Of a stretch of 26,275 nucleotides of DNA, positions 6,312 to 8,565 are shown piece by piece. The position numbers and the translations under genes were made by a program. The DNA is from Candidatus Zhuqueibacterota bacterium (GTDB lineage Bacteria > SM23-31 > B21-G16). The notes under the pieces are model-generated. The model was given only the letters and a program-made list of their open reading frames with translations, was not told the DNA's origin and ran no database searches. The stretch's first letter is position 1. Every line of letters starts with the position of its first letter. The stretch spans positions 1 through 26,275 of the forward strand of contig QNDJ01000001.1 in the NCBI GenBank assembly GCA_003644825.1, written 5' to 3'.

Positions 6312-7628
6312 ATGGAAAGGAAAAGAGTTGTAATAATGGGCGCCGCTGGAAGGGATTTTCATAATTTTAATACCTGTTTCAGGGATAATAATAGTTATGA
6401 AGTGGTTGCTTTTACAGCAACACAGATTCCCTATATTGAAAACAGGAGGTTTCCAGCATCAATAGCGGGAAAACTCTATCCTGATGGGATTCCAATTTTC
6501 CCCGAAGAAGAATTAACAGATATAATAAAAAAATATAATGTTGATGAAGTTGTTTTTTCTTATAGTGATGTTCCTTATGATTATGTTATGAGCAAATCTG
6601 CTATAGTTAACAGTTCAGGAGCCGATTTTAAATTACTTGGATTTAAGAAAACAGCCATAAAATCAAACAAAAGGGTAATATCGGTCTGTGCAGTAAGGAC
6701 AGGCTGTGGTAAGAGCCAGACGACACGAAGAGTTTGTGATATTCTTCAAAAAAAGGGTTTGAAACCGGTAGTAATCCGTCATCCTATGCCTTATGGAGAA
6801 CTTGAAAAGCAGAGGGTTCAAAGATTTGCTTCTTACGAGGACCTTGATAAACATAAATGTACTATAGAAGAAAGAGAAGAATATGAATCCCATATAGATA
6901 GAGGGGTAGTTGTTTATGCTGGTGTCGATTATGGAGAGATTCTAAAAGAAGCTGAAAAGGAAGCTGATGTAATTCTGTGGGATGGAGGTAATAATGATTT
7001 ACCTTTTTACCTGCCAGACCTTCATATTACAGTTGCAGACCCCCATAGGGCAGGTGATGAGATTTTTTACTATCCAGGCGAGTCAAATATTCGTATTTCT
7101 AATGTTGTGATTATAAATAAAGTTGATACAGCCGATTTTGAGAATATTGAGGAGGTAAGAGAAAATATTAAAGATATTAATCCGGATGTTAAAATTATAG
7201 AGGCAGCTTCACCGATATTTTCGAACGAGGCTGATAAGGTTAAAGGCAAGCGAGTCCTTGTTATAGAAGATGGTCCAACATTGACTCACGGGGGAATGGA
7301 TTATGGTGCTGGATACATAGCCGCAGAAAAGTTTGGTGCCTCAGAAATAGTTGAACCTTATTCTTATGCAGTTGGTTCAATTGTAGAGGTTTTAGATAAG
7401 TTTGAGGGAGATTTTCCTATACTGCCAGCAATGGGATACAGCGAAAAACAGATAAAAGAGCTTGAAACAACAATTAATAAAGCCGATTGTGATATTGTTC
7501 TTACCGGTACACCGATTAATCTTAAAAGAGTGCTGAAAGCTAATAAACCGATTGTACACATTACTTATGAACTCCAGGAAATAGGTAAACCTACGCTGGA
7601 GGAAGTGTTAGGTGAGTATGGATTCTAA
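6312..7628 (+). CDS. arcE: COG2403 P-loop NTPase (cyclic 2,3-diphosphoglycerate synthetase-like family); probable arginine synthetase ArcE
   Basis: Family motifs MGAAGRDFHNFN, VAFTATQIP, P-loop VRTGCGKSQT, RHPMPYG, CTIEEREEYE, WDGGNND, EDGPTLTHGGM, LPAMGYS. It overlaps a carbamate kinase gene. The family call is strong; the ArcE activity is inferred from family and context. Confidence 0.75.
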   Translation: MERKRVVIMGAAGRDFHNFNTCFRDNNSYEVVAFTATQIPYIENRRFPASIAGKLYPDGIPIFPEEELTDIIKKYNVDEVVFSYSDVPYDYVMSKSAIVNSSGADFKLLGFKKTAIKSNKRVISVCAVRTGCGKSQTTRRVCDILQKKGLKPVVIRHPMPYGELEKQRVQRFASYEDLDKHKCTIEEREEYESHIDRGVVVYAGVDYGEILKEAEKEADVILWDGGNNDLPFYLPDLHITVADPHRAGDEIFYYPGESNIRISNVVIINKVDTADFENIEEVRENIKDINPDVKIIEAASPIFSNEADKVKGKRVLVIEDGPTLTHGGMDYGAGYIAAEKFGASEIVEPYSYAVGSIVEVLDKFEGDFPILPAMGYSEKQIKELETTINKADCDIVLTGTPINLKRVLKANKPIVHITYELQEIGKPTLEEVLGEYGF

Positions 7629-8565
7629 GACAATTGTCATAGCATTTGGTGGAAATGCTATTACGAGAGAATCCGAGGAAGGGCATATATATGAGCAGTT
7701 TGCAAATACAAGGAGGAGTATATCAGGCATAATAGATTTAATTAAAAAAGATTATAATATTGCAATAACTCACGGTAATGGTCCTCAGGTGGGACATATG
7801 TTAATAAGGGTTGAGGAAAGCAGACATATTGTTCCGCCGATACCACTTGGAGTTATTGTAGCAGACCTTGAAGGTGGAATGGGGTATATGATTGGTCAAT
7901 CTCTTCAGAATAAATTGAAAAAAATGGGTATAAATAGACCTGTAGTAACAGTTTTGACCCAGGTAATAGTGGATAAAAATGACCCTTCCATAAAGAATCC
8001 GACAAAATTTGTAGGACCTTTTTATCAGGAGAAGGATGCAGAAAAACTTGTAAAAGAAAGGGGTTGGGTTGTTAAAAAAGATTCTATAAGAGGTTATAGA
8101 AGAGTAGTTCCCTCGCCGTTACCTCTGGAGATTGTGGAAAAGGAAACAATAAAATATCTTGTAAAATCGGGGACTATAGTTATTGCTGCTGGTGGAGGTG
8201 GAATACCGGTATATGTTGAGGATGATGGCAGGCTTGAAGGTTTAGATGGTGTAATTGATAAGGATAGAGCTTCTGCAATTCTGGCAAGAGATATTGAAGC
8301 TGATGAGTTGATAATTTTAACATCTGTTGATTATGTTGCTCTTAATTATGGCAAAAAAAATCAGATTGACCTGAAGAAGATAACAGTAGAGGAGGCAAAA
8401 AAATATTTGAAGGATGGTCAATTCCCTCCCGGGAGTATGGGACCCAAAATAGAGGCTGCTATTAGTTTTATTGAAAACGGAGGAAAAAAGGTTATAATAA
8501 CTTCTATAGAAAAAGCAAAAGAAGCTTTAAAGGGAAATGGTGGAACAGTAATAACAGAGAATTAA
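7618..8565 (+). CDS. arcC: Carbamate kinase
   Basis: IAFGGNA, THGNGPQVG, KNPTKFVGPFY, RRVVPSP, AAGGGGIPV, VIDKD, GSMGPKIEAA. ATG 7618 is preferred over the ORF-track start at 7612. Confidence 0.95.
   Translation: MDSKTIVIAFGGNAITRESEEGHIYEQFANTRRSISGIIDLIKKDYNIAITHGNGPQVGHMLIRVEESRHIVPPIPLGVIVADLEGGMGYMIGQSLQNKLKKMGINRPVVTVLTQVIVDKNDPSIKNPTKFVGPFYQEKDAEKLVKERGWVVKKDSIRGYRRVVPSPLPLEIVEKETIKYLVKSGTIVIAAGGGGIPVYVEDDGRLEGLDGVIDKDRASAILARDIEADELIILTSVDYVALNYGKKNQIDLKKITVEEAKKYLKDGQFPPGSMGPKIEAAISFIENGGKKVIITSIEKAKEALKGNGGTVITEN

Follow-up and report, generated by a model that had tools for sequence, protein, structure and literature searches.

An ArcE-type arginine synthetase gene coupled to a carbamate kinase gene in an uncultured bacterium: a probable ATP-conserving route of arginine breakdown

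The gene TK2200 of Thermococcus kodakarensis encodes the arginine synthetase ArcE, which catalyzes the reaction Arg + ADP + Pi <-> Cit + NH3 + ATP (Pi, inorganic phosphate; Cit, citrulline) and forms, together with ornithine carbamoyltransferase (OTC, ArcB) and carbamate kinase (ArcC), the arginine synthetase pathway (Michimori, Yokooji and Atomi, PNAS 2024, PMC11032458). In the same study, cyclic 2,3-diphosphoglycerate (cDPG) synthetase was the outgroup of ArcE, the LpxK structure 4ehy was used for comparison, and arcE homologues were reported across many bacterial phyla, with Caldithrix being named. A follow-up published in 2026 extended the physiology of T. kodakarensis by showing that pyrimidine prototrophy depends on arcE and arcB but not on arcC (PMC13260591). 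The present analysis concerns an arcE–arcC gene pair in a stretch of 26,275 nucleotides (the window), which is the entire contig QNDJ01000001.1 of a metagenome-assembled genome (MAG) of an uncultured bacterium of Candidatus Zhuqueibacterota with a GC content of ∼35%. The MAG comprises 2.48 Mb in 493 contigs and is 83.6% complete with 0.5% contamination, and all statements below on genes not found in it are to be read at that completeness. An earlier note, prepared from the letters of the window, had proposed that this bacterium uses the ArcE route hidden behind a GTPase or cDPG synthetase label; its account of the T. kodakarensis literature was correct.

The open reading frame of 438 amino acids with a P-loop was found as the earlier note had described it, with the Walker A motif RTGCGKS at residues 129–135. 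Neither Pfam nor NCBIfam (release 20.0) contains a model of ArcE, and the search of the protein against these collections gave only weak cobW/HypB P-loop matches, with no family assigned. An alignment of 33 diverse full-length homologues was built, and tertiary structure prediction with AlphaFold2 gave a model with a mean predicted local distance difference test score of 93.6 and a predicted template modeling (TM) score of 0.91. The model was compared using Foldseek with the Swiss-Prot part of the AlphaFold database as well as with the PDB. The top Swiss-Prot match was Q5JHM5, “Arginine synthetase ArcE, T. kodakarensis KOD1” (E = 4.2e-63), showing 63% identity over 435 aligned residues, TM scores of 0.97/0.95 and a root mean square deviation of 1.2 Å. 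The next thirteen matches were cDPG synthetases with 13–17% identity and TM scores of 0.44–0.50, including the Methanothermus fervidus enzyme O93732 (16% identity, TM 0.48) and Q5JDW8, annotated as the cDPG synthetase of T. kodakarensis, and were followed by LpxK. The PDB search returned the cDPG synthetase structures 8ork/8oru at TM 0.42–0.46 and then LpxK 4ehy. In an alignment of 115 family members from bacteria and archaea, 134 columns were at least 95% conserved, and the window protein retained the conserved residue in 126 of these. The eight deviations (Y47F, L51I, P121R, P193S, A293V, Y364F, R416H, and V417I) are mostly conservative and leave the P-loop and the WDGGNND motif untouched. 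Owing to the high identity and structural similarity to ArcE, the low identity to the cDPG synthetases and the intact conserved residues, the protein is an orthologue of ArcE, and cDPG synthetase is excluded.

The public names of relatives sharing 65–69% identity with the protein are “GTPase,” “predicted GTPase,” “hypothetical protein,” and “cyclic 2,3-diphosphoglycerate synthase,” which is the mislabeling that the earlier note had foreseen. That the window protein is itself a cDPG synthetase or a GTPase, as these names of its close relatives would have it, is given next to no probability here. A phmmer search of the PDB did detect a distant local similarity to the cDPG synthetase 9sxb over ∼110 residues (E = 1.7e-7), and Foldseek assigned a probability of 1.0 to 8ork/8oru, but the protein is far closer to ArcE than to any of the thirteen Swiss-Prot entries, T. 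kodakarensis encodes both enzymes as separate genes (Q5JHM5 and Q5JDW8), and the gene context consists of carbamate kinase and OTC, with no glycolytic enzymes. The earlier note had raised grouping with cDPG synthetases as the competing outcome; close similarity to these enzymes, that of M. fervidus included, was not observed, and as a family assignment the cDPG synthetase identity was rejected. Hyperthermophilic methanogens contain cDPG as an extremolyte.

The gene following arcE encodes carbamate kinase, its product scoring 388.7 bits against the profile TIGR00746, over the curated equivalog cut-off of 358.25 bits. The stop codon of arcE (TAA, 7626–7628) lies within arcC, and the overlap amounts to 11 nucleotides when arcC is read from the ATG at 7618, as claimed earlier, or to 17 nucleotides when it is read from the in-frame GTG at 7612. 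The sequence GGAGGA is present at 7598–7603, 8 nucleotides ahead of this GTG, which may be the true start of arcC and is at least as good a candidate as the ATG. Since the reading frames overlap, arcE and arcC are translationally coupled whichever start applies. An identical overlap of 11 nucleotides was found in metagenomic relatives with 78% identity (loci L015 and L016).

Further genes of arginine metabolism were sought in the whole MAG. It harbors a single OTC gene (C79:788–1684; 383.9 bits against a cut-off of 280.85), the second transcarbamylase being pyrB, and a carbamoyl-phosphate synthetase (CPS) with a full-length carB (1532 bits); carbamate kinase is therefore not needed to make carbamoyl phosphate. 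Arginine deiminase is absent from the window, as stated in the earlier note, and was not found in the MAG with TIGR01078, nor was any member of the arginine deiminase/amidinotransferase superfamily PF02274. This is the gene content that the note had expected, i.e., arcB/argF present and arcA missing. Arginase, argG, argC, and argJ were likewise not found in the MAG, the sole match for argH being purB and that for argB being carbamate kinase itself. The genomic location of the OTC gene is unusual; it is placed 36 nucleotides downstream of hslU and 30 nucleotides upstream of a gene for a Crp/Fnr-family regulator, in the same orientation as both (L002; G000:C79, 47–3079).

From the orthology, the coupling and the gene content it is highly probable, as regards catalysis, substrate and direction, that arcE, arcC, and OTC together form an arginine synthetase pathway for the ATP-conserving breakdown of arginine. 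In such a pathway, ArcE would convert arginine, ADP and Pi to citrulline, NH3 and ATP, OTC would phosphorolyse citrulline to ornithine and carbamoyl phosphate, and ArcC would move the phosphate onto ADP, forming a second ATP and releasing CO2 and NH3. The predicted yield is two ATP per arginine as compared to one via the arginine deiminase route. Within ArcE, phosphate could possibly attack the guanidino carbon to give a phospho-isourea, from which the phosphate would be transferred to ADP at the P-loop; this is our own suggestion and is absent from the 2024 study (PMC11032458). In this organism the catabolic direction is most likely, as judged from the gene content of an incomplete MAG, since arcE is coupled to a carbamoyl-phosphate-consuming enzyme, an independent CPS is present, and no genes of ornithine/arginine biosynthesis were found. 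The host thus probably ferments arginine and is auxotrophic for it, and the ArcE assignment predicts arginine auxotrophy along with the use of arginine for substrate-level phosphorylation.

Several observations weigh against this pathway. The OTC gene is unlinked to arcE–arcC and is present on another contig, and its best NCBIfam match is a general OTC subfamily. Among the best 80 of more than 590 arcE loci detected in a scan of species-representative genomes, neither arcC nor OTC was found nearby in 60. The ArcE reaction is reversible, with a Keq of ∼10 at 80°C (PMC11032458), and hence gene content alone leaves the direction unfixed. No enzyme assay of any bacterial ArcE was found in the literature, and to this extent the remark of the earlier note that bacterial examples are little characterized stands; as to occurrence it does not, as homologues in many bacterial phyla had already been reported (PMC11032458) and that of Caldithrix is 68% identical. 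Moreover, at 83.6% completeness in 493 contigs, arcA and the arginine biosynthesis genes are not proven to be absent. In genomes of the same phylum, argG–argH and argC–argB form two separate adjacent pairs, and the chance loss of both pairs with ∼16% of the sequence missing is roughly 3%.

The phylum as sampled in GTDB comprises 12 species genomes. The genes arcE and arcC occurred together in six of these and were both absent from the other six, while in none of the 12 did an arcA match exceed the cut-off. The genes argG/argH were lacking in five of the six arcE-positive genomes, among them the near-closed G005–G007, but were present in four of the six arcE-negative ones. G005 and G007 share the gene order pyrR–arcC–arcE–HAD-IIA hydrolase–OTC. 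The genomes G005–G007, which represent a sister genus, have retained argC and an argB-like gene and are missing argG/argH, and hence ArcE may be the sole link between citrulline and arginine in them.

This distribution bears on the possibility that ArcE is mainly synthetic in the present organism, forming arginine from citrulline, NH3 and ATP in place of the missing argininosuccinate synthetase and argininosuccinate lyase. In T. kodakarensis the reversible reaction allowed arginine to be made in vivo, and such a role was suggested by Michimori et al. for some bacteria devoid of these two enzymes (PMC11032458). Neither argG nor argH was found in the MAG or in G005–G007, the latter carry arcE and OTC besides argC and the argB-like gene, and the MAG possesses both CPS and OTC. 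A mainly synthetic role is nevertheless considered unlikely here, as argB, argC, and argJ were not found in the MAG, so that a supply of ornithine is not evident, and as the tight coupling to a carbamate kinase that consumes carbamoyl phosphate fits breakdown, as does the strict co-occurrence of arcE and arcC across the phylum. Owing to the presence of argC and the argB-like gene, the synthetic role is more plausible for G005–G007 than for this MAG.

It could also be supposed that the pathway chiefly supplies carbamoyl phosphate, for pyrimidines or other uses, and ornithine from arginine, with the gain of energy being secondary. The requirement of arcE and arcB, but not of arcC, for pyrimidine prototrophy in T. 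kodakarensis (PMC13260591) and the pyrR gene at the beginning of the cluster in G005–G007 are in agreement with such a role. However, with the full-length carB and pyrB, carbamoyl phosphate is available here independently of arginine, and arcE is coupled to arcC, whose product destroys carbamoyl phosphate for ATP; a primary supply role is therefore very improbable, and breakdown of arginine with conservation of ATP remains the preferred function of the gene pair.

ArcE is unusually conserved and common to both prokaryotic domains, as already stated in the 2024 study. The best 80 of the arcE loci encode proteins with 59–67% identity to the window protein and belong to many phyla, the bacterial ones including Chloroflexota, Calditrichota, Ignavibacteriota, Acidobacteriota, Thermotogota, Caldisericota, Aminicenantes, Zixibacteria and Clostridia, and the archaeal ones Thermoplasmatota, Bathyarchaeia, Heimdallarchaeota and Aenigmatarchaeota. 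Within 6 kb of arcE in these 80 loci, arcC was present in 17 and OTC in 10, mostly directly downstream. In one archaeal phylum, an orthologue with 53–66% identity was present in 38 of the 61 genomes sampled, and a search of the same 61 genomes with the window protein gave no weak matches of the cDPG synthetase kind. A search of representatives clustered at 50% identity revealed homologues in a Thermoproteota MAG (45% identity), in other archaeal MAGs and in the eukaryote Creolimax. In some much longer family members, P0127 (766 amino acids), P0141 (655 amino acids), and P0216 (806 amino acids), the C-terminal half carries the ArcE-like region, and these are possible fusion proteins.

Archaeal and bacterial orthologues were 58–67% identical to the window protein, and in a quick, midpoint-rooted and unfinished tree built with no cDPG synthetase outgroup they were intermixed. 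The window protein, together with P0005, was placed in a clade of 44 rows with an SH-aLRT (Shimodaira–Hasegawa-like approximate likelihood ratio test) support of 99, unresolved inside the clade, and apart from the homologues of its own phylum. This suggests a frequent transfer of arcE between the domains, although no transfer scenario is drawn from the unfinished tree.

The leader of arcE contains a promoter-like element followed by a stem-loop. RNA folding of the region 6203–6320 gave −22.9 kcal/mol, with z = −4.06 relative to shuffled sequences. In L015 and L016 the promoter-like block is nearly identical and the hairpin sequence is conserved (L015, 7900–7975). The gene upstream of arcE in these two loci differs from the peptidyl-prolyl isomerase gene found in the window and is divergent, and hence the hairpin there is not simply a terminator of the isomerase gene. 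The hairpin may act as a terminator/attenuator of the leader, as an operator palindrome, or as the terminator of the upstream isomerase gene. The palindrome occurs just once in the genome (none lies near the OTC gene, for example), and for this reason the idea of a regulon operator was dropped. The Rfam search of the window, hairpin included, gave no match, and ArgR was not found in the genome.

In a wider view, which is held to be unlikely, ArcE would be the sole citrulline–arginine link in the phylum, as five of the six arcE-bearing genomes lack argG/argH; it could then run in either direction, set by the energy charge, and the hairpin would serve as an undescribed attenuator or operator setting the expression of arcE–arcC and possibly of sucCD–ndk.

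Downstream of arcC lie sucC, sucD, and ndk, which are neighbors outside the arginine pathway and are possibly co-transcribed with arcE–arcC. The gap between arcC and sucC is 47 nucleotides and contains no terminator on the forward strand; a strong promoter-like site is present at 8471–8498, within the 3′ end of arcC. The products of all five genes handle nucleoside di- or triphosphates. In the metagenomic relatives with 78% identity, arcE–arcC is followed by sucC–sucD–ndk–yceD–plsX–fabH as in the window. The order arcE–arcC–sucC–sucD recurs in MAGs of Calditrichota, Ignavibacteriaceae, Zixibacteria and a group labeled Neomarinimicrobiota (Marinimicrobia-type) (L025, L054, L074, L092, L094, and L015–L018), and ndk also follows sucCD in the window, L015/L016, L025, and Caldithrix. 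The features are listed in Table 1.

Table 1. Coordinates of the arcE locus, its leader and downstream genes in the window, and of the arcE cluster in near-closed genomes of the same phylum.
Feature	Position	Strand	Description	Basis
Promoter-like element	6209-6237	+	TTGACT-17 nt-TATATT with A8 run, upstream of arcE	Consensus scan, 10/12 matches
Stem-loop	6257-6289	+	Perfect 10-bp stem AGCACTGAGT-ATA-ACTCAGTGCT followed by T-rich tail, arcE leader	Terminator-like scan
arcE	6312-7628	+	Arginine synthetase, P-loop enzyme, 438 aa (P0001)	AlphaFold2/Foldseek and residue conservation
arcC	7612-8565	+	Carbamate kinase, 317 aa (start GTG 7612) or 315 aa (start ATG 7618)	TIGR00746
sucC	8613-9779	+		NCBIfam equivalog
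sucD	9791-10660	+		NCBIfam equivalog
ndk	10676-11104	+		NCBIfam equivalog
pyrR-arcC-arcE-HAD-IIA-OTC cluster	G005:C1:1507978-1512939 (L019 4970-9939); G007:C1:3711780-3716169

The gene pair of the window is an ordinary member of a known system and adds no new principle to those of the 2024 and 2026 studies; its significance lies in annotation. Swiss-Prot now includes ArcE (Q5JHM5), yet thousands of orthologues with 60–70% identity to the characterized enzyme are still named GTPase or cDPG synthetase. Because of this mislabeling, and as no Pfam or NCBIfam model covers the family, an ATP-yielding step of arginine fermentation is overlooked when the metabolism of uncultured anaerobes is reconstructed.

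When compared with the described systems, the window protein resembles T. kodakarensis ArcE over the whole chain (438 and 448 amino acids, respectively, with 63% identity and a TM score of 0.97), including the P-loop and the conserved motifs. As in T. kodakarensis, OTC and carbamate kinase are present, and arginine deiminase and argG/argH were not found. However, arcE and arcC are translationally coupled here, whereas TK2200, TK0871, and TK2158 of T. kodakarensis carry unlinked locus tags, and the present host, a bacterium, possesses the CPS that T. kodakarensis lacks. Calab_0633 of Caldithrix abyssi shares 68% identity with the window protein, is followed by arcC with sucC–sucD–ndk downstream, and is likewise labeled “putative GTPase” or “cyclic 2,3-diphosphoglycerate synthase.” In C. 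abyssi, however, arcE and arcC are separated by a gap of 80 nucleotides and two reverse-strand genes precede sucCD, in contrast to the overlapping and contiguous arrangement in the window. With the cDPG synthetase of M. fervidus (O93732) and the structures 8ork/8oru, the window protein has in common a distantly related P-loop two-domain architecture, but the identity is only 13–17% with TM scores of 0.5 or less, and the substrate and biology of that enzyme differ. The arginine deiminase pathway (ArcA–ArcB–ArcC) similarly leads from arginine to ornithine, CO2 and 2 NH3 and shares the OTC and carbamate kinase steps; its first step, catalyzed by ArcA of the amidinotransferase fold, is hydrolytic and yields no ATP, whereas in the present genome, in which no ArcA or other gene of the arginine deiminase superfamily was found, the corresponding step would be that of ArcE.

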